Shown here one piece after another: positions 48,349 through 58,017 of a DNA stretch of 64,000 nt (its first letter is position 1; each line of letters begins with the position of its first letter). The stretch lies in the NCBI GenBank assembly GCA_046290465.1, contig JBKAGP010000001.1, positions 2,272,001 to 2,336,000 of the forward strand, written 5' to 3'. This DNA comes from Planctomycetota bacterium. Its GTDB lineage: Bacteria; Planctomycetota; UBA1135; UBA2386. Under the pieces are notes generated by a model. The model did not search any database. It saw only the letters and a list, made by a program, of their open reading frames with translations, and was not told the origin of the DNA. A program made the position numbers and the translations under genes.

Positions 48349-49941
48349 TCAGCGCGCGCCCCCGGAGAGGCGCGGCAACATCTCGTCGCGCTGCGCGGTC
48401 TGCCAGACGAACGTCGCCATGATCACCGACGCCTGCTTCAGGTCGTCGGCAACCGCGTGGTCCCAGTTGTCCATGTTGGAGTGGTGCGTGCGCGTGCTGT
48501 AGCTGACCGCGTCCTGGATGAACTGGAACCCCGGCACCCCGACCCCGTGGAACGCCAGGTGGTCGGTGCCGCCGGTGTTGTCGAGCGTCAGCGTCGACGC
48601 CGCGTGCACGTGGAACGGCCGCAGCCACGGTCGGAACACCCGCGCGACGTCCTCGTTGCCCTGCAGGTAGACGCCGCGGATGCGGCCGGTGCCGTTGTCG
48701 AGGTTGAAGTAGCCCGACACCTTCGCCGCCTCGTCCGTCGGCGACTCCTTGCTGCCCAGGTGCTGCCGCACGTAGGCGCGCGAGCCGAGCAGCCCCTGCT
48801 CCTCGCCGCTCCACAGGCAAGAACGGATGGTGCGACGCGGCCGCACGCCCTTCTGCTTGCAGTATTCGCTGATCAACCGCGACGCCTCCAGCACGACCGC
48901 GCTGCCGCAGCCGTTGTCGGTCGCACCGGTGCCCGACTGCCAGCTGTCCAGGTGCGCACCGATCATCGCGAACTGGTCGGCGAGGTCGCTGCCCTCGAGG
49001 TCGGCGACGACGTTGTAGTCGTTCTGCTCGCCGTCGAAGAAGCTCGCGCGCAGCTCGACCGCGACCCGCACCGGCAGCCCCTTCTGCAGGATCCGGCACA
49101 TCCGGTTGTAGTGTTCGACCGCGATCGTCATCTGCGGGATCACCTTGGCGTCCGCATCGCGCGCGCTCTTGCGCTCGGCGCGCGGCGTGTCCGGCGGGTT
49201 GACGGCGCGCGCGCCGGTCGTGAACACGGTGCCGTATTCGCCCTTGCTGCCGCAGTCGACGATCGCCAGCGGTTCCTTCTGCTGCACGATCGCCATCATC
49301 TGCATGCGCTTCTGGAAGCCGATGCGGAAGCTGTTGCGGGACCGCGCCGAGCGCGCCCGGTCCCCCGACCGCTGCGTCTCGGCGCGCTGCTGGTCGGCGA
49401 GCCGCAGCAGGCTCTCGGTGTCATGACGCGTACTGACCCCGTCGAACGGCTCGCGCACCGTGCGCATGTCGGCGATCAACACGACCTTGCCCGCGAGGTC
49501 GGTCTTGCGCAGCTCGTCCGCGGTCATCGACGCGACGTGCACGACGTCGGCCTCGATCCGACCTTCGACTCCCGGCGACCAGGCCTTGGCGTATGCGATC
49601 ACCGGCCACGGGTTGTCGCCGACGACCGACATCGCGACGTGGTCGCAGCGCCAGCCGCGCCCGAACGGCCCCCACTCCTCGAGCTCGGGAGCCATGCCCA
49701 TCTGCCGGAAGCGGTTGGCCGACCACTGCTGCGCCTTGCGCAGGTTCGGCGAGCCGGTCACGCGCGGGCCGTAGACGTCGCACAGCCAGCTCAGGTGCTC
49801 CATCACCTGCGAGCGTTCGAGGCCCTCCTCGAGGAAGAACGCGACGGCGGCCTCGTCGACGGCACCGTCGGCGCCCGGCACCTGGGCCGGCAACAGGGAG
49901 GCGAGGGAAGAGACGACGAACGTGAGCATCGGGACGCGCAT
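48349..49941 (-). CDS. M28 family metallopeptidase (carboxypeptidase Q-like) with a PA domain
   Basis: GPRVTGS, IGAHLDSW, GATDNGCG, WSGEEQGLLGS, NLDNG, GTDH, THHSNMD. Confidence 0.93.
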   Translation of the reverse strand: MRVPMLTFVVSSLASLLPAQVPGADGAVDEAAVAFFLEEGLERSQVMEHLSWLCDVYGPRVTGSPNLRKAQQWSANRFRQMGMAPELEEWGPFGRGWRCDHVAMSVVGDNPWPVIAYAKAWSPGVEGRIEADVVHVASMTADELRKTDLAGKVVLIADMRTVREPFDGVSTRHDTESLLRLADQQRAETQRSGDRARSARSRNSFRIGFQKRMQMMAIVQQKEPLAIVDCGSKGEYGTVFTTGARAVNPPDTPRAERKSARDADAKVIPQMTIAVEHYNRMCRILQKGLPVRVAVELRASFFDGEQNDYNVVADLEGSDLADQFAMIGAHLDSWQSGTGATDNGCGSAVVLEASRLISEYCKQKGVRPRRTIRSCLWSGEEQGLLGSRAYVRQHLGSKESPTDEAAKVSGYFNLDNGTGRIRGVYLQGNEDVARVFRPWLRPFHVHAASTLTLDNTGGTDHLAFHGVGVPGFQFIQDAVSYSTRTHHSNMDNWDHAVADDLKQASVIMATFVWQTAQRDEMLPRLSGGAR

Positions 49942-50004
49942 GGGACCTCCGGGAATGGGCACCCACGTATACGGCCGCGTTACGATCGCGGCGAGCCCTA
50001 CGAG

Positions 50005-51396
50005 ATGAACCAGATGTCCCGTGTGTTCCCTCTCCTGCTGGCGCTCGCGTCCGTCGCGTGTGCACAGCAGTCCATGGTCGAAAGCATGAACCGCCGGTTC
50101 GCGACGACGTCGCCGAAGGCCGGGGAGATGCTGCCCGACGCGACCGGCTTCACGATGCGCGGCGAGCCGTTCGCGCTGCGCGACACGCGCGGCAAGCTGA
50201 CCGTGCTGGTGACCGGCTGCCTCACCTGAGTGCCGTTCCTGCGCAACGTCCCCGGTCTGGAGGCGGTCTATCGTGACTACGCGAAGAAGGGCGTGCAGTT
50301 CTTCATCGTCTACAAGTCGGTCGTGCACCCCGGCACCAACGGCGTGCTCGACGCGGTCACCGAACGAGAACGGATCCTGCAGCTGCAGCTCGCCAGGGAG
50401 CGCCTCGGCACCACCGTGCCGATGGTCAGCGACTCGCTCGACGGCGCGATCGTGCGCGCGCTGCAGTCCGCGCCCAACGCCGAGTTCGTCATCGACGCCG
50501 ACGGCACGGTGCTGTCGCGCAAGTTCTGGCACGACCCGGCGGCGCTGCGCACGTTCCTGGCGCAGCGGGTCGGCGAGGTCGAGCCGGCGACGCGCGTCGA
50601 GGACCTCGGCATGCGGCTCGAGTGGCCGGAGCGCAAGGCGAAGACCGGCCTCGTGCCGCGCAAGCAGGTGCCGCCGGACATGAGCATCGCGGTGTCGCAG
50701 CCGGTGCTGCCCGAAGACCCACAGGCGCTTCGCGACATGACGCCGTTCTTCGCCAAGCTGCTCGTCGAGGCGGACCAGCCGCTGATGCAGCAAGGCTCCG
50801 GCAAGCTCTACCTCGGCTTCTACCTCGACCCGGTCTACCAGGTGCACTGGAACAACCCCGCCGGCGGACTGTCGTGGCAGCTGGCGGTCGTCGACGACGG
50901 TGGCGACCAGCGATTCGAACCGATCCGCGGAGCGACGCCGAAGTTCGAGCACGAGATCGACCTCGACCCGCGCGAGTTCGTGCTCGACGTCGACCTGCCC
51001 ACCGCGAAGGCCCTGCAGCTGACGGTCACCTACACGGTCTGCGCCGACGACGATTCGTTCTGCATGCCGGTGACGCAGCAGCACCGGATCGAGCTGAAGC
51101 CGAAGCCGGGCGGCGCGTCGCGGGCGGGCGACTGGATGACCGAACTGGTCGGCGACCCGATGGCCCACGACGCCGATGGCGACGGCCGGGTGACGCTCGC
51201 GGAGCTGCCCGAGCAGCGCGCCCGGATCATCCTGCTGCACTACGACCACAACCACGACCAGGCGATCGATGCCCGCGAGGCCGCGCTGTTCTACCGGATG
51301 GTCCGGCTGCGCCCGGGCGAACGCACGACGACCGCTGCCAAGGCGAGCGCCCCGGCAACGGCCACCCCCAAGGAACCGCGGCGCGACGGCCGATAA
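50005..51396 (+). CDS. Putative selenoprotein: deiodinase-like thioredoxin fold (CxxU; TGA at 50227-50229 read as Sec) plus DsbD-alpha-like domain and EF-hand pair; probable lipoprotein
   Basis: Reading through the in-frame TGA gives LTVLVTGCLT-U-VPF...FFIVYKSVVHP...PNAEFVIDADG. A SECIS-like hairpin follows immediately. Lipobox LASVAC. Confidence 0.85.
50247..50265 (+). promoter_or_regulatory. Candidate bacterial SECIS element
   Basis: CGTCCCC-GGTCT-GGAGGCG stem-loop with a G-first GGUCU loop 24 nt after the UGA, reminiscent of the E. coli fdhF GGUC loop. Confidence 0.7.
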
Positions 51397-51462: not shown

Positions 51463-51978
51463 ATGTCGTCCCGCAACCACAACCCGGCCGCCGAGGGCCG
51501 CCGCACCGCCAGGCACTGGCTGTGCATCGCGCTCGTGCTGCTGATCGGGATGACGCGGCAGCTGGTGATCTGCACGCACCAGGGCGGCCAGACGCACATC
51601 GAGTTCGCCCACCAGGAAGGCGCCTCGAGCCACCACGGCCACCACCACGGTGGCTGCAACCACGCGCACTTCGTGATCGACGCGCGCGGCGGCCAGCACG
51701 GGGCGCAGCAGCACGCGCATCCCGACGGTGACGACTGCGACGACCCGCACTCGTCGTGCGACCACGTGCACCTGAGCGTCGACGTCGGCCCCAAGCCGCT
51801 GCCGGACGTGGTCGACCTGCCGTTTGCGCAGCCGATCGTGCTGTGGCTGCACCCGGAGCTGCAGGACCAGTGGGCGAGCACCGAGCGCCCGGCGCAGCCG
51901 CCGCCCGCGACCGGCCCACCGCGGCCGAGACCGCGCCAGTACCTCGCGCTCCGCGCGAGCACCGTGCTGCTGATCTAG
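51463..51978 (+). CDS. His/Cys-rich exported protein upstream of the metal efflux operon (CzcI/DUF2946-like)
   Basis: N-terminal TM segment, HHGHHHGGCNHAH, CDDPHSSCDH and C-terminal GPPRP...STVLLI. Confidence 0.6.
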   Translation: MSSRNHNPAAEGRRTARHWLCIALVLLIGMTRQLVICTHQGGQTHIEFAHQEGASSHHGHHHGGCNHAHFVIDARGGQHGAQQHAHPDGDDCDDPHSSCDHVHLSVDVGPKPLPDVVDLPFAQPIVLWLHPELQDQWASTERPAQPPPATGPPRPRPRQYLALRASTVLLI

Positions 51979-52088
51979 TCGAGAGGCGCGCGCCCGGGGC
52001 GCGCGGTTCGCCGCGCCTTCGGGCGCGTCCTTCGCCGATGCCGTTTCCGAGGCATCGGTGCGTCCGGCGAACGACCTCTCGACTCCCG

Positions 52089-53456
52089 ATGCCATTCCGT
52101 AGATCCCCATTCCGTAGATCCCCATTCCGTGGGTCCCCGTTCCGTAGGTCCGCTGCCCTGCTGCTGGCCACCGCGCTGTGCAGCTGCCATTCGTATGAGG
52201 CGATGCCCGTCGACCTCGACGAGCACCTGCGTGGCTTCCGAGAACGCGCCCCGCTCACCGTGCAGGGCGACGGGCTGACGCGCGCCGAGGGCCGCGAGGT
52301 CGCCAAGATGTTCCACCCCGACGCGCGGCTGGCGCGGCTGCGTGCCGGCGTCGCCACCGTCGAACGCGACCAGGCCGGTCGCTGGGACGACCCGCAGCTG
52401 CAGACCAACCTGCAGAACATCCTCGAGAGCGTGCCGTACCGATGGGTCGCGCAGGCGCAGCTCGGCTTCACCCTGCCGATCAACGGCCGCCTGCACAAGG
52501 AGCGTGAGCTCGCCGACCGTCGCCGCGACGAGGCGCTGGTCGAGGCCTGGGCCACCGAACAGCGCGTCGCCAACCAACTCGACCGCGCCTGGACCAGCCA
52601 CGCGGCCGCCCGGCAGCGGGTCGCGCTGTTCGAACGGACCTGCACGAACCTTGCCGAACTCGAGAAGGTCGCGGCGCGGCTGGTCGAGGTCGGCAGCCTG
52701 ACCCGGCCGGGGGCGCGCGTGTTCGGCCTCGAGCGCCACAACCAGGAAGCCGGCCAGGCGCTCGCGATCGCCGACGCCGACGCGACCGCCATCGAGCTGC
52801 GCGCCGCGCTCGGCCTGCACCCGGATGCGCCGCTCGAAGTGGTCGCCGACCTCGACGTGCAGCCGTTCGCGGCCGATGCCGATCGTCGTCGCGAACTGCT
52901 GCGGCAGAGCCCGCGCCTGCTGGCGCGCGAGCTCGCCCATCGCAGCGCCGAAGCGGACCTGATCCTGCAGATCCGCCAGCAGTGGCCCGACCTGCAGCTG
53001 TGGCCCGGCTGGCAGGAGGAGGACGGCCAGCCGCGCGCCGGCTTCGGCGTCAACCTGACCCTGCCGGTGTGGACCGCCAACGAACCCGAGGTCCTGCGCG
53101 CCGAGGCCGAGCGCGCCTGGACCGCCGAGGCCGTTCGCGCCGGCTACGAGCAGCTGCTGCAGGAGCTGGCAGCCGCCGAGATCCGGCGCAGCGCCGCCGC
53201 CGACCAGGTGGCCCGCTTCGAGGCGCTGCACGGCCTCGCGACCGAACAGGTTCGCGACAACCACCGCCTGGCCGAGGTCGGCCAGATCGACGTGCTGCTG
53301 ATGCTCGACGCGCTGCTGCGCGAACACAACGTGCAGCTCGCCGCGATCGACGCGGCGCTCGCGCACGCGCAGCGCACCGTCGACGTCAACCAGCTGCTGC
53401 CCGACCCCGCCTCCGCACCACCCACCACCAGCACCGAACCGGGAGCCTCCCGATGA
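52089..53456 (+). CDS. TolC-family outer membrane factor (CzcC-like)
   Basis: Lipobox LCSC, DP-x-L and PDLQL...GVNLTLPVW motifs, GQIDVLLMLDA; first gene of the RND trio. Confidence 0.85.
   Translation: MPFRRSPFRRSPFRGSPFRRSAALLLATALCSCHSYEAMPVDLDEHLRGFRERAPLTVQGDGLTRAEGREVAKMFHPDARLARLRAGVATVERDQAGRWDDPQLQTNLQNILESVPYRWVAQAQLGFTLPINGRLHKERELADRRRDEALVEAWATEQRVANQLDRAWTSHAAARQRVALFERTCTNLAELEKVAARLVEVGSLTRPGARVFGLERHNQEAGQALAIADADATAIELRAALGLHPDAPLEVVADLDVQPFAADADRRRELLRQSPRLLARELAHRSAEADLILQIRQQWPDLQLWPGWQEEDGQPRAGFGVNLTLPVWTANEPEVLRAEAERAWTAEAVRAGYEQLLQELAAAEIRRSAAADQVARFEALHGLATEQVRDNHRLAEVGQIDVLLMLDALLREHNVQLAAIDAALAHAQRTVDVNQLLPDPASAPPTTSTEPGASR
52092..52151 (+). repeat. 4 x 15-bp coding tandem repeat (PFRRS)n in the signal-peptide n-region
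   Basis: CCATTCCGTAGATCC x2, CCATTCCGTGGGTCC, CCGTTCCGTAGGTCC. Confidence 0.9.
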
Positions 53457-54835
53457 TCCGCACCCCGTGCACGCGCGCGTTCGCGCTCCTCGTCATGTCG
53501 ACGTTCCTGGCCAGCTGCGGCGGCGAGGACGAACGGCCACAGCCGACCGAGACCGCCGGCAAGGCACCGTCCAACCGCGTCGACGTGCCGCCGATGGTGC
53601 GCCGCAACCTCGGCATCGAGTTCGCCACCGTCGCGCGCCGCCGGGTCGCGCAGACGCTGCGGCTGCCCGCGCAGGTCGAGCTGCTGCCGGCCGCGACCCA
53701 GCACTACACCGCGCCGTTCGCCGGCCGCGTGCAGGTCCTGGTCGCGCCGCTGCAGCAGGTCGAAGCCGGCGACGTGCTCTACACGCTGGACTCGCACGAG
53801 TGGCGCGCCACCCAACGCGAACTCGGCGCAATGGCCACCGCGATCGAGCTGACCCGGGCGCGCATCGACGCGATGGGCCCGCTGCTGGAGTCCTGCGCCG
53901 AACACGAGCGCAGCCTGCGCACCGCCCACGACGTCACCGGCCGCTACATCGAGGACCTGCAGCGCGCCGAGGGCGACGTCGGCGGCCAGGCGCAGAAGCT
54001 CGCCGCGGCCCGCGTCGAACTGGCGCAGCTCGCCGCCCAGATCGCCGACGCCGACGAGAAGCACACCGAGACCGTGACGCGCCAGAAGGAGCTCGACGCG
54101 ACGCTGCGCAGCCAGCGCGAACAGCTCGAGCTGCTGCAGCAGGGCGCCGCGGCGGCGCTCGGCGTGCCGGCGGAGTCGCTTGCCGCAGGCTGGCGCGGCC
54201 TGTCGCGCATCGAGGTCCGCGCGCAGCGCACCGGCGTCGTCGAAGAGATCCGGGTCGCCAACGGCGCGCTCGTCGAGAGCTTCGGCCACGTGCTGAGCAC
54301 GATCGACCCAACCGCCGTGCGCTGCCATGCGCGCGCGCTGCAGAGCGACCTGGGCCTGCTGCGCAACGGCCTGCCGGCGGCGATCGTGCCGACCGGCACC
54401 GGCGAAGCCGGGCAACGCGTCGCCGGCACGCTGCAGCTCGGCCCCGCCGGCGACGCACGCGCGCGCACGCTCGACGTCTACGTGACCCCCGAAGACGGCG
54501 ACCTCGGGTTCGTGCGGGCAGGCCTCGCGGTGTTCGTCGAGATCACCACCGCGACCAGCGGCGACGCGCCGCTGGCGATCCCGCGGGCCTGCGTGCTGCC
54601 CGACGGCCTCGACCGCGTGTTCTTCCGGCGCGACCCGCGCGACCCGGACAAGGTGATCCGCGTGGTCGCCGACCTCGGCGTCGACGACGGCGTCTGGGTC
54701 GAGGTCAAGTCCGGCCTCACCGACGGCGACGAGGTCGTGCAGGCCGGCGCCTACGAGCTGGTGCTGGCGAGCGGCGACCAGACCCCGAAGGGCGGCCACT
54801 TCCACGCCGACGGCACCTGGCACGAGGATCACTAG
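53453..54835 (+). CDS. RND efflux periplasmic adaptor (CzcB/CusB-like)
   Basis: Lipobox LASC, APFAGRV...VEAGDVL, GLTDGDEVV...GAYEL, C-terminal GHFHADGTWHEDH. Confidence 0.88.
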   Translation: MIRTPCTRAFALLVMSTFLASCGGEDERPQPTETAGKAPSNRVDVPPMVRRNLGIEFATVARRRVAQTLRLPAQVELLPAATQHYTAPFAGRVQVLVAPLQQVEAGDVLYTLDSHEWRATQRELGAMATAIELTRARIDAMGPLLESCAEHERSLRTAHDVTGRYIEDLQRAEGDVGGQAQKLAAARVELAQLAAQIADADEKHTETVTRQKELDATLRSQREQLELLQQGAAAALGVPAESLAAGWRGLSRIEVRAQRTGVVEEIRVANGALVESFGHVLSTIDPTAVRCHARALQSDLGLLRNGLPAAIVPTGTGEAGQRVAGTLQLGPAGDARARTLDVYVTPEDGDLGFVRAGLAVFVEITTATSGDAPLAIPRACVLPDGLDRVFFRRDPRDPDKVIRVVADLGVDDGVWVEVKSGLTDGDEVVQAGAYELVLASGDQTPKGGHFHADGTWHEDH

Positions 54836-57800
54836 TGTTCCGCAGTCTCATCGCATTCTCGCTGCAGCGGCCGTTCGTGGTCTGCGTGCTGGCCCTGCTG
54901 CTGGTCGGTGTCGGTGCCTACCTGGTGCCGCGCATGCCCGTCGACGTGTTCCCGGAGCTCAACGCCCCGACCGTGGTGATCCTCACCGAGAGCCCCGGCC
55001 TCGCCGCCGACGAGGTCGAACAGAGCGTCACGCTGCCGCTCGAGACCGCGGTGCGCGGCCTGCCCGCCGTGCGCCGCGTGCGCAGCGCCAGCGCCATCGG
55101 CCTGTCGCTGCTGTGGATCGAGTTCGAATGGGGCCAGGACATCTATCGCGCCCGCACGCTGGTCAACGAGAAGCTGTCCGCGACGCGCGACCTGCTGCCG
55201 GCCGACTGCCACGCCGAGATCACCCCGATCACGTCGATCACCGGCGAGATCATGCTGATGTCGGTGTCGTCGCCGGACGGCGCGGTGTCGCCGATGGAGC
55301 TGCGCAGCTACGCCGAGTTCGACCTGCGCAACCAGCTGATGGCGGTGCCCGGCGTCGCCCAGGTGGTCGCGATCGGCGGCGAACTGGCCGAGTACCAGGT
55401 GCACGTGCGCCAGGACGATCTGCGGCTCTACGACCTCACCCTGCAGGACGTCGTCGAGGCGGCCGAACGGGCCCACACGACCGCGGGCGCCGGCTACCTG
55501 CTCAACGTCGACGGACTCGAGCTGCCCGTGCGCCAGACCGGCAGGGTGCGCAGCGTCGCGGACGTTCGCGGCACCGTGATCCGCAAGGTCGAGGGCCATG
55601 CGATCACGCTCGGCCACGTCGCCGACGTGCGGCTGGGGCCGACGCCCCCGCGCGGCACCGCCGCCGAGGGTGGCCGCCGGGCGGTCGTGCTGTCGGTGCA
55701 GAAGTCACCGGGCACCAACACGCTGGCGCTGACCGAAGCGGTCGACGCGCGGCTGCAGGCCGCCCGCAAGACCGCGCCGGACGGCGTCGTCATCAACGAG
55801 CACGTGATGCGGCAGGCGGACTTCATCCAGCTGTCGGTCGACAACCTGCTGGCGGTGCTGCGCGATGCAGCGATCTTCGTCGCGATCATCCTGGTGCTGT
55901 TCCTGCTCGAGTGGCGCACGACGCTGATCACGCTGACCGCGCTGCCGCTCAGCCTGGCGGTCGCGTTCGTGGTGCTGTGGGCGGCCGGCATGTCGATCAA
56001 CGTGATGACGCTCGGCGGCCTCGCGGTCGCGATCGGCGAGCTCGTCGACGACGCCATCATCGACGTCGAGAACGTGTTCCGTCGCCTGCGCGAGAACGCC
56101 GCGCTGCCCGCGAACGAACGCCGCAGCGTGCTGGCGGTGACGTTCGCCGCCAGCAACGAAATCCGTAGCTCGGTGGTGTTCGCGACCGCGATCATCGTGA
56201 TGGTGTTCGTGCCGCTGCTGTTCCTGCAGGGCCTCGAGGGCCGCTTCTTCCGGCCGCTCGGCGTGTCGTACATCGTCGCGACGCTGGCGTCGCTGGTCAC
56301 CGCGTTGACGGTGACGCCGGTGCTGTGCCGGTTCCTGCTAGCCAGGGTGCGGCCGGGCGGCGAGCACGGCGACGGCTGGCTGGTGCGCTGGTTGAAGCGG
56401 CGCTACCGGCCGACGCTCGACTGGGCGATGCGGCACGGCCGCGCGACGCTGGCGGTCTCGGCGCTGTTGACGATCTCGTCGCTCGGGCTGGCTTCGACAT
56501 TCGGTTCGAGCTTCCTGCCGTCGTTCAACGAGGGCACGTTCACGGTGTTCCTGATGGCGCCGCCGGGCACGTCGCTCGAGGAGAGCGATCGCATGGCGAC
56601 CGGCATCGAGACCCAGCTGGCCGAGCTGCCGGGCGTGCGCGCGGTCGTGCGACGCACCGGCCGCGCCGAACGCGACGAGCACGCCGAGCCGGTCAGCAAC
56701 AGCGAGGTCGAGGTGTCGATCCTGCCCGGCCACGACCGCGCCACCGTCCGTCGCGAGATCGACCGCGTGCTGGCGAGCGTGCCCGGCATCACGACCAGCG
56801 TCGGCCAACCGATCGAGCACCGGCTGTCGCACGTGCTGTCCGGAACGCCGGCGGCGATCGCCGTAGTCGCCACCGGCGACGACCTCGACGTGCTGCGCGA
56901 CCTGGCTGAACGGCTGAAGGGCGTGATCGCCGCGGTGCCGGGCACGCGCGACGTCAACGCCAGCCGCGAGGTGATGATCACGTCGCTGCCGATCCGCTAC
57001 CGCCCCGCGGCGCTCGCCGCGGCCGGCCTGACCCCGGCCGACGCGGCCGAACAGGTGCAGGCGGCGATCGCCGGCGCGCGCATCACCGATGTGCTCGACG
57101 GCCAGCAGCGCATCGCGTTGACCGTGCGGCTGCACCCGGACGAACGGCGCGACGTCGGCTCGGTGCGCGACCTGATGCTGCGCGGCATCGACGGCGCCAC
57201 CGTGCGCCTGCGCGACGTCGCCGACGTCTCGCTCGAGCGTTCGTCCAACCTGATCGCGCGCGTCGACGGCCAGCGCAAGGCGACCGTCTCGTGCAACGTG
57301 GCCGACGGCTACAACCTCGGCCAGGTCGCCGAGGCGGTGCGCGCCGCGGCCGACCCCGTGGTCACCGCGGCCGGCTGCTCGCTGACGGTCGGCGGCCAGT
57401 TCGAGGCGCAGCAGTCCGCCAGCCGCACGATCCTGGTGATGGGTTCGTTCGTCGTGCTGGTGATGCTGATGCTGGTGCACGCCGCGATCGGCTCGCTGCG
57501 CGCGTCGCTGCTGGTGATGGTCAACCTGCCGCTGTCGCTGATCGGCGGCATCGCGGCGATCTACGTGACCGAAGGCGCCGGCGCCGTCGGCAACACGCTG
57601 GCCCTGCTCGGCATCAGCGGCGAACGCTACGTCGCGCCGGTGATCTCGATCGCCAGCATGGTCGGGTTCATCACCCTGTTCGGCATCGCGGTGCGCAACG
57701 GAATCCTGCTCGTCCGCCAATACTTCGACCTGATCGCCGAAGGCCGGCCGCTGTTGCAGACCGTCGTCGAGGGCTCGCTGGCGCGCCTGGTGCCGATCCT

Positions 57801-58017
57801 GATGACCGCGCTCACGGCAGCCCTGGGCCTGCTTCCGATCGTGTTCGCCGCCGGCGAACCGGGCAGCGAAATCCTCGCACCGCTGTCGATCGTCGTGCTC
57901 GGCGGGCTGCTGTCCTCTACCTTCCTCAATCTGGTCGTCGTACCGGCCGGGTTCTACCTGTTGTTCCGCAATCGGCCGCTGCCGATCCCCGATCAAGAAC
58001 TGGAGTCCATCTCATGA
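54835..58017 (+). CDS. Heavy-metal efflux RND permease (CzcA/CusA family)
   Basis: MPVDVFPELNAPTV, NVMTLGGLAVAIGELVDDAIIDVEN, FLPSFNEG, RTGRAE, GFITLFGIAVRNGIL, PILMTAL. Confidence 0.95.
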   Translation: MFRSLIAFSLQRPFVVCVLALLLVGVGAYLVPRMPVDVFPELNAPTVVILTESPGLAADEVEQSVTLPLETAVRGLPAVRRVRSASAIGLSLLWIEFEWGQDIYRARTLVNEKLSATRDLLPADCHAEITPITSITGEIMLMSVSSPDGAVSPMELRSYAEFDLRNQLMAVPGVAQVVAIGGELAEYQVHVRQDDLRLYDLTLQDVVEAAERAHTTAGAGYLLNVDGLELPVRQTGRVRSVADVRGTVIRKVEGHAITLGHVADVRLGPTPPRGTAAEGGRRAVVLSVQKSPGTNTLALTEAVDARLQAARKTAPDGVVINEHVMRQADFIQLSVDNLLAVLRDAAIFVAIILVLFLLEWRTTLITLTALPLSLAVAFVVLWAAGMSINVMTLGGLAVAIGELVDDAIIDVENVFRRLRENAALPANERRSVLAVTFAASNEIRSSVVFATAIIVMVFVPLLFLQGLEGRFFRPLGVSYIVATLASLVTALTVTPVLCRFLLARVRPGGEHGDGWLVRWLKRRYRPTLDWAMRHGRATLAVSALLTISSLGLASTFGSSFLPSFNEGTFTVFLMAPPGTSLEESDRMATGIETQLAELPGVRAVVRRTGRAERDEHAEPVSNSEVEVSILPGHDRATVRREIDRVLASVPGITTSVGQPIEHRLSHVLSGTPAAIAVVATGDDLDVLRDLAERLKGVIAAVPGTRDVNASREVMITSLPIRYRPAALAAAGLTPADAAEQVQAAIAGARITDVLDGQQRIALTVRLHPDERRDVGSVRDLMLRGIDGATVRLRDVADVSLERSSNLIARVDGQRKATVSCNVADGYNLGQVAEAVRAAADPVVTAAGCSLTVGGQFEAQQSASRTILVMGSFVVLVMLMLVHAAIGSLRASLLVMVNLPLSLIGGIAAIYVTEGAGAVGNTLALLGISGERYVAPVISIASMVGFITLFGIAVRNGILLVRQYFDLIAEGRPLLQTVVEGSLARLVPILMTALTAALGLLPIVFAAGEPGSEILAPLSIVVLGGLLSSTFLNLVVVPAGFYLLFRNRPLPIPDQELESIS

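Follow-up and report, generated by a model that had tools for sequence, protein, structure and literature searches.

Positions 50005–51396 (+) of the window, that is, of the whole 64,000-nucleotide stretch of DNA analysed, almost certainly hold one gene and not two ORFs, encoding an exported redox enzyme related to the thyroid-hormone deiodinases. The gene is a real, mis-annotated selenoprotein gene of a wide subfamily that has no name. A first-pass annotation had proposed that two ORF halves lie in one frame across a TGA codon, and this was confirmed: the region is a single 463-codon frame whose sole internal stop, TGA 50227–50229, corresponds to U75 within G-C-L-T-U-V-P-F, and the motifs listed at the time (FFIVYKSVVHP, PNAEFVID, VHWNNP, YTVCADDDSFCMP and both EF loops) were found in the read-through product. 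The expectation that standard annotation would miss the gene was likewise borne out, the ORF list breaking it at the TGA to leave a downstream piece of 388 aa (50230–51396), the databases calling this downstream half as a protein, and the gene's own database entry beginning after the TGA. Both possible start Met codons are kept in 6/9 listed N-termini of the close-relative clade. The genome measures 6.59 Mb, with 70% G+C.

The predicted structure of the read-through product (mean pLDDT 79, pTM 0.74) consists of a signal helix, a thioredoxin-fold domain (34–194), a linker, an all-beta domain (227–366), an EF-hand pair and a disordered tail. The features discussed below are the following:

50005–51396, +, whole gene, 463 aa when the TGA is translated as Sec; M1 (50005) or M4 (50014) as start
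50005–50064, +, signal peptide, aa 1–20, with a probable signal peptidase I site A-C-A / Q (relatives' N-termini, by eye)
50104–50586, +, deiodinase-like thioredoxin/peroxiredoxin-type domain, aa 34–194 (VIA-align; Pfam AhpC-TSA and Redoxin)
50218–50220, +, C72 at -3, a putative resolving Cys that takes the position of the deiodinase Ser (alignment to DIO3)
50227–50229, +, TGA as selenocysteine U75 (homologue Cys, TGA conservation, two other runs, Sec machinery)
50247–50265, +, bacterial SECIS: 7-pair stem with one C-A mismatch and a GGUCU loop, 24 nt after the UGA
50311–50331, +, Y-K-S-V-V-H-P, start of the deiodinase-type loop; Tyr, His and Pro kept, relay Glu replaced
50683–51102, +, Ig-like DsbD-N-type domain, aa 227–366, with HWNNP and C346/C353 (Pfam PF11412, model strands)
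51040–51042 and 51061–51063, +, C346/C353 pair on a beta hairpin of the Ig-like domain (model)
51130–51303, +, EF-hand pair, with loops at 51169–51204 and 51244–51279 (aa 389 and 414) and helices in the model
51304–51393, +, low-complexity, unconserved C-terminal tail (pLDDT <50 for aa 433–463)

Recoding of the TGA codon

The proposal that the TGA encodes selenocysteine was upheld by its conservation, by its Cys counterparts and by the Sec machinery of the genome. A TGA occupies the site in an open frame in 86/86 loci, ranked by likeness to a query carrying Cys at position 75 (the gene itself, 5 genome loci and the best 80 of at least 534 metagenome matches). A protein search with 8000 candidates scored gave 98 homologues, of which 26, all full length, present Cys at the TGA position (G-C-L-T-C), the other 72 starting downstream of it; alignment of homologues, one of the checks first suggested, thus speaks for Sec. 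The full-length gene occurs in 5/14 same-genus genomes and in 0 of the other 46 relatives; each of the five carries the TGA, and one match also has a TAG. At least three switches between Sec and Cys are required by the well-supported branches of a quick 107-row tree. The search for selA, selB, selC and selD was positive as well, with selA, selB and selD above cut-off and a tRNA-Sec present in the genome, and selA was found in 60/61 related genomes. The selD gene (L004, G000:C1:1309619–1310557) adjoins selA and has an in-frame TGA of its own; it is a selenoprotein gene here and in relatives, and Sec use appears to extend to the whole order.

In two runs of different studies (X2 and X7), contigs spanning the TGA show no differing letter at 50227–29, by which an assembly error at this site, a possibility raised in the first-pass annotation, is ruled out. 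Two RNA runs (X18 and X19), which may be DNA, gave short contigs at 49900–50219 and 50248–50472 that do not bridge the TGA. The outcome for homologues with neither Cys nor Sec, named at the outset as grounds for doubt, was mixed: Cys is found in the 26/98 cited above, but in 17/72 homologues spanning both Cys sites position 75 is occupied by a different residue, most of these proteins belonging to a beta-helix-fused clade from which the second Cys pair is missing as well.

The SECIS hairpin proposed downstream holds as regards its position, its GGUCU loop and its codon conservation across relatives, but not as regards fold energy. The hairpin does occur in the minimum-energy fold. Taken alone, however, it is weak (-5.2 kcal/mol, z -0.22 versus shuffles; z +0.91 for a 74-nt region), so that its energy, no better than that of shuffles, was set aside as uninformative. 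The published rules for bacterial SECIS elements are a 3–9 nt loop with G in the first two loop positions, 16–37 nt from the UGA, a stem of 4–16 bp and an energy of -7.5 kcal/mol or lower (PMC13188914). The shape agrees with them, with a 5-nt loop, a spacing of 24 nt and a G at loop position 2 in 69/69 distinct sequences, whereas the 19-nt hairpin by itself falls short of the energy limit (-5.2 versus -7.5 kcal/mol); the value varies with the length that is folded, being -6.8 kcal/mol for 33 nt and -12.7 kcal/mol for the 54 nt from the UGA. Codon choice over the hairpin is far narrower than in the remainder of these genes: Val at +7 is encoded by GTC in 65/68 (42% elsewhere), Pro at +8 by CCC in 40/40 (26%), Ser at +8 by TCC in 29/29 (19%), Gly at +9 by GGT in 31/31 (20%) and Glu at +11 by GAG in 67/69 (59%). 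Among 53 loci less than 80% identical, codons +7, +8, +9 and +11 are the most constrained of 73 positions, with a modal codon share of 0.94–1.00 against at most 0.83 at the other 69. Three of the 7 stem pairs change on both sides, and the covariation score is reached by 0/500 shuffles, with a one-column slide scoring as high (0.118 versus 0.102); the C-A mismatch lies in the hairpin of 40/69 sequences. The hairpin was consequently counted as supported because of its conservation across relatives, not of its fold energy.

A reading of the TGA as a true stop, a pseudogene lesion or an assembly error, with the 388-aa downstream ORF as the gene, would accommodate the database calls, the poor energy of the lone hairpin and the 17/72 homologues with a non-Cys residue, but it has next to no probability in view of the 86/86 loci sharing the TGA in an open frame, the letters confirmed by two other runs, the signal peptide and half of the catalytic fold that would lie upstream of the stop, and the concentration of the non-Cys homologues in the beta-helix-fused clade. 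It is near certain that SelB-dependent recoding of the UGA at 50227 inserts Sec at position 75.

Domains of the product

The deiodinase-like fold claimed for the first domain, and the structure prediction suggested as a check on it, were both supported by the model, whose best matches by VIA-align are mouse DIO2 (9h48; Z 19.8, rmsd 2.2, 156 residues) and DIO3 (4tr3; Z 19.0, rmsd 2.7, 157 residues). These are followed by SdbA (Z 17.5), ResA (Z 17.0) and DsbE, which trail the deiodinases at Z 17.5–16.8, and the order was the same in a wide fold search. By this match to DIO2 and DIO3, the deiodinase-like superfamily fold (a thioredoxin with a peroxiredoxin-like module and the deiodinase insertion) is present. 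At the level of profiles, Pfam AhpC-TSA and Redoxin are both over cut-off in this domain, NF038285 scores 44.9 bits, below its family threshold of 250, and PF00837 gives no match to the protein, being matched by 7/52 family members at E 0.01.

The description of the site as a CxxU thioredoxin stands for the Sec and for the thioredoxin fold, but in sequence alignments U75 coincides with the Sec of DIO3 and with the first Cys of a TlpA-like WCPPC, F78 with the second Cys of that motif, and C72 with the deiodinase Ser. The site is not a canonical CxxC, because the Sec aligns with the first Cys of thioredoxin; in the alignment to 3or5 and ResA, the canonical TlpA/ResA arrangement with its second Cys on helix 1 is absent. 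C72 is found in 86/86 loci and in 26/26 full-length Cys homologues. The proton relay proposed for deiodinases involves Ser, Thr, Tyr, Glu and His (PMC11592359), a set that is not complete here: Thr, Tyr and His are kept, as is the Pro that follows the His, Ser has become Cys, and Glu occurs in 0/91 aligned sequences. The resemblance to a YIxEAHP motif pointed out initially is accordingly partial, Tyr, His and Pro being retained but Glu being replaced by Leu, Ile, Val or Met in 91/91. In ordinary bacterial deiodinase-like loci, one of them from this genome, Glu is present in the loop motif in 10/10 and the -3 Cys in none. A branch set the family apart in 100% of 200 bootstrap trees, with support of only 84/73. 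The first domain is a distinct, CxxU subfamily of bacterial deiodinase-like thioredoxin folds, which resembles a deiodinase in fold but has neither the full deiodinase relay nor the TlpA motif.

The second domain had been likened to DsbD-alpha with a Cys pair, and a DsbD-N-like domain is supported; the pair is conserved in 62/62 Sec loci with a complete second domain, and the match to PF11412 is borderline (23.3 bits in one search and 26.3 in another, against a cut-off of 25). PF11412 is matched by 14/52 family members, and one truncated relative is named a DsbD N-terminal domain protein by NCBI. The comparison of the beta domain with the genome's own DsbD by hhalign gave a probability of 0.4%, and a PDB sequence search with the Ig domain gave chance antibody matches only. 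A model of the lone Ig domain was poor (pLDDT 50.8), with a best Z of 6.8, the ScsB alpha domain at rank 13 (Z 5.9) and no chain at Z 8.

In the full-length model, C346 and C353 flank the turn between strands 337–347 and 353–366. Both are carried by 290 aligned sequences, and the pair is kept in 54/55 CxxC proteins. Conversely, 14/17 proteins lacking Cys at position 75 have neither Cys of the pair, P0133 and P0245 breaking the pattern; most of the cases in which the two sites were lost together come from one clade (6 sampled rows, support 100, in the quick 107-row tree). A rough and shallow coupling analysis of 266 sequences recovered strand pairs of the model and ranked the inter-domain pairs 151–369 and 118–360 third and seventh (Neff 209, 326 columns; partly lineage-driven), position 369 being G in this protein and Asp in the family. 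Going by these couplings, the deiodinase loop would lie against the strand coming after C353. Elsewhere in the genome, L110 (G000:C1:4518463–4520100) encodes a DsbD that comprises both N and membrane domains, apparently with two tandem DsbD-N-like domains, each bearing a Cys pair, ahead of the membrane domain.

Export was predicted from the start and is supported by the signal peptide, with N-termini of relatives that fit signal peptidase I cleavage. The lipobox reading of LASVAC did not survive: the letters are present, but the lipobox-position Cys is G, W, V or T in close relatives, where the following A-Q is kept. The N-termini of relatives close with A-x-A before a Gln and conserve no Cys, and the Ser at -3 is non-canonical with respect to the lipobox consensus; a lipoprotein was rejected on the varying Cys and the retained A-Q, which fit a signal peptidase I site. 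Judging from these N-termini, the protein is likely exported as a soluble envelope protein.

The two EF-hand loops reported earlier were found at the positions listed above. They are 12-residue loops of the D-x-D/N-x-D type ending in Glu, the second with Gln for the usual Gly. Pfam EF-hand_6 is matched by 48/52 family members and, at E 0.01, not by this protein. The EF-hands look accessory, because between 0 and 4 loops were counted per locus in a set of 62, contig ends perhaps having truncated some of these loci, and because their location varies too, with N-terminal EF-hands in some members.

Distribution, fusions and gene neighbourhood

The subfamily is wide, with at least 534 confirmed metagenome stretches and 301 representatives at E 1e-30. 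The closest named relatives, 59–64% identical, come from Planctomycetota and uncultured-bacterium assemblies. Among 400 genomes of the phylum, with four candidates scored per genome, only short matches to the thioredoxin domain were found, in 9 genomes. Sequencing runs that contain near-identical DNA carry the labels algae, aquaculture and marine metagenome. A natural Cys form is known from a named isolate, Maioricimonas sp. JC845 (WP_367089680.1).

Homologues of 680–930 aa (P0161, P0164, P0166, P0167, P0175, P0189, P0192, P0196, P0201, P0210, P0218, P0223 and P0231) display an N-terminal fusion to a beta-helix/PMP-repeat region. Neither the catalytic residue nor the second Cys pair survives in this group, but the scaffold does, as do mostly the EF-hands, and the group is probably a non-redox offshoot. 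In other proteins (P0113, P0129, P0110, P0132, P0160, P0100) the module is fused to arylsulfotransferase, Lcl_C, YHYH, DUF3179 or dienelactone-hydrolase-like domains, or is duplicated in tandem; DUF3179 is itself a listed selenoprotein family (PMC13188914).

The genome also has a second, ordinary deiodinase-like gene (L012, G000:C1:6461328–6461861, -). Its in-frame TGA falls in G-S-Y-T-U-P-P-F, and it has a signal peptide as well as a hairpin whose loop is of the GGUCU type. Deiodinase-like genes with an in-frame TGA were seen in nine other genomes of the phylum (L014–L022), some of them fused to EF-hands and a second thioredoxin domain, or to a hydrolase-like domain.

Downstream of the gene, 51463–58017 (+) holds a His/Cys-rich 171-aa ORF, which starts 66 bases past the gene, followed by an outer-membrane factor, an adaptor and CusA/CzcA-like heavy-metal efflux genes. 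The downstream gene order is kept in 5–7 close relatives only, a divergent M28 peptidase and the efflux cluster recur only among close relatives (5–8 loci), and no neighbour gene recurs across the wider family. No functional link to the neighbours is claimed, because they recur only among close relatives.

Proposed mechanism and relation to known systems

Starting from the recoding signals, the fold and the conservation of both Cys sites, which are observed, catalytic steps, an electron route and a substrate can be proposed by analogy. The favoured proposal, to which we give somewhat better than an even chance, is an exported Sec reductase that would be recycled through C72 and its own Cys pair. 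The U75 selenolate would attack an oxidant, most likely a peroxide or a reactive-halogen species, or else an oxidised protein thiol. C72 would then resolve the oxidised U75 to a selenenyl-sulfide, as the proximal Cys does in human DIO1, where a Cys124–Sec126 bond has been shown (PMC9141512); the proximal Cys lies at -3 here and at -2 in DIO1. The U75–C72 bond would be reduced by the C346/C353 dithiol of the fused DsbD-N-like domain, itself presumably re-reduced by the genome's membrane DsbD, whose gene lies at another locus, and the EF-hand pair may bind Ca2+ as an accessory module; regulation by Ca2+, as first suggested, is a conjecture. Caution is due on the internal relay, because Caulobacter and E. 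coli tests showed DsbD/ScsB alpha domains to reduce a thioredoxin-like protein, with no direct reduction of a peroxiredoxin (PMC3322552).

The protein could instead be a self-contained periplasmic reductase of protein disulfides or sulfenic acids, like a fused DsbD-alpha/TlpA pair, in which the Ig domain would take electrons from DsbD-gamma and the Sec domain would pass them to clients. The alignment of U75 with the attacking Cys of TlpA/ResA-like proteins, the rank of SdbA, ResA and DsbE straight after the deiodinases (Z 17.5–16.8), the transfer of electrons from ScsB to TlpA (PMC3322552) and the fusion of Cys forms to varied exported domains (arylsulfotransferase, Lcl_C, YHYH) all point this way. 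The second thioredoxin Cys is Phe, however, the deiodinase-type loop is kept with an invariant His-Pro and in deiodinases shapes a small-molecule site (PMC11592359), and no neighbour recurs outside close relatives, which leaves this explanation unlikely, if still a serious contender.

Clearly less probable is a true reductive dehalogenase of iodo- or bromo-aromatics, acting like the animal deiodinases with the fused domain as reductant. DIO2 and DIO3 are the two best structural matches, by about 1.5–2 Z over the next row, the deiodinase site retains its Thr, Tyr, His and Pro, and near-identical DNA occurs in the runs with algae, aquaculture and marine labels. Against it, the proposed proton relay has lost two of its members (in 91/91, Leu, Ile, Val or Met stands in for Glu, and Ser has become Cys), ordinary bacterial deiodinase-like loci keep the Glu in 10/10, and the 2005 paper on the bacterial members expected another function for them (PMC1088965). 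A broader conjecture, rather doubtful though not as improbable as strict dehalogenation, is that of a deiodinase-lineage enzyme in which a resolving Cys has taken over from the proton relay and a fused DsbD-type domain provides recycling, and which, in the cell envelope of marine bacteria, would either reduce reactive halogen species or remove halogens from algal compounds.

Bacterial deiodinase-like selenoproteins have been known since 2005, when they were reported from the Sargasso Sea (PMC1088965), and their function was not found in the literature consulted. In a 2026 catalogue of 119 families, the table lists deiodinase-like proteins once (PF00837, motif UxxC) and has no CxxU deiodinase-like or DsbD-N/EF-hand entry (PMC13188914); the NCBIfam release of June 2026 holds no model that this protein passes. 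A 2021 paper on GOS data mentions a selenoprotein fusion of a deiodinase-like domain with an EF-hand (PF13499) and a fusion of a Prx-like U/CxxC domain with PF11412, bearing extra conserved Cys residues (PMC9402790), and the present CxxU subfamily may have been glimpsed there. The 2008 GOS supplements contain no CLTU, DPREF or HWNN string, the accessible parts of deep-Sep and of a 2022 review do not describe a three-module family, and the literature search found no paper naming a deiodinase-like/DsbD-N/EF-hand combination. The initial statement that the architecture is not characterised holds for the three modules together, for which no description was found, but has to be tempered by the two-module fusions that the 2021 paper, in its available text, put in print.

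What the subfamily offers is not a new type of system but a way of putting a long-standing question to the test, together with a correction to annotation. The correction concerns a subfamily cut in two by gene callers, and the test is helped by a member that should be easy to assay, with catalytic site and probable reductant in one soluble chain. Were the broader conjecture on reactive halogens and algal compounds true, a bacterial relative of the deiodinases would for the first time have a defined reaction, along with a reductant built into the protein, which would touch on the origin and re-reduction of the animal deiodinases.

Among known systems, lanmodulin (PDB 6mi5) is the best PDB sequence match of the closely spaced EF-hand pair (E 1.1e-8), and its model NF053806 is matched by 26/52 family members but not by this protein, which has two loops only and lacks the Pro seen at loop position 2 in lanmodulin. 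The 2021 fusions each name, in the available text, two of the three modules seen here plus extra conserved Cys residues, neither being described there with all three (PMC9402790). As in the relay from the DsbD/ScsB alpha domain to TlpA and to the envelope peroxiredoxin PprX (PMC3322552), an Ig-like Cys-pair hairpin could feed a thioredoxin-fold partner; in contrast to that relay, the Ig domain, of borderline similarity, is here fused to the Sec enzyme with no membrane domain. The animal enzymes DIO1–3 (PDB 9h48, 4tr3/4tr4) provide the best structural matches, share the Sec position, Thr, Tyr, His and Pro, and also have a nearby Cys that may resolve the oxidised Sec, but they are only 17–19% identical, the relay Ser and Glu are replaced here, and their membrane anchor contrasts with a cleavable signal peptide and extra Ig and EF-hand domains. 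With the bacterial deiodinase-like selenoproteins, the protein shares the fold, the Sec in an x-T-U-P-P-F context, an in-frame SECIS and, often, export; it differs from them in the -3 Cys that replaces Ser/Ala/Gly-type motifs, in a Y-x-x-x-x-H-P without Glu, and in the fused DsbD-N-like domain.
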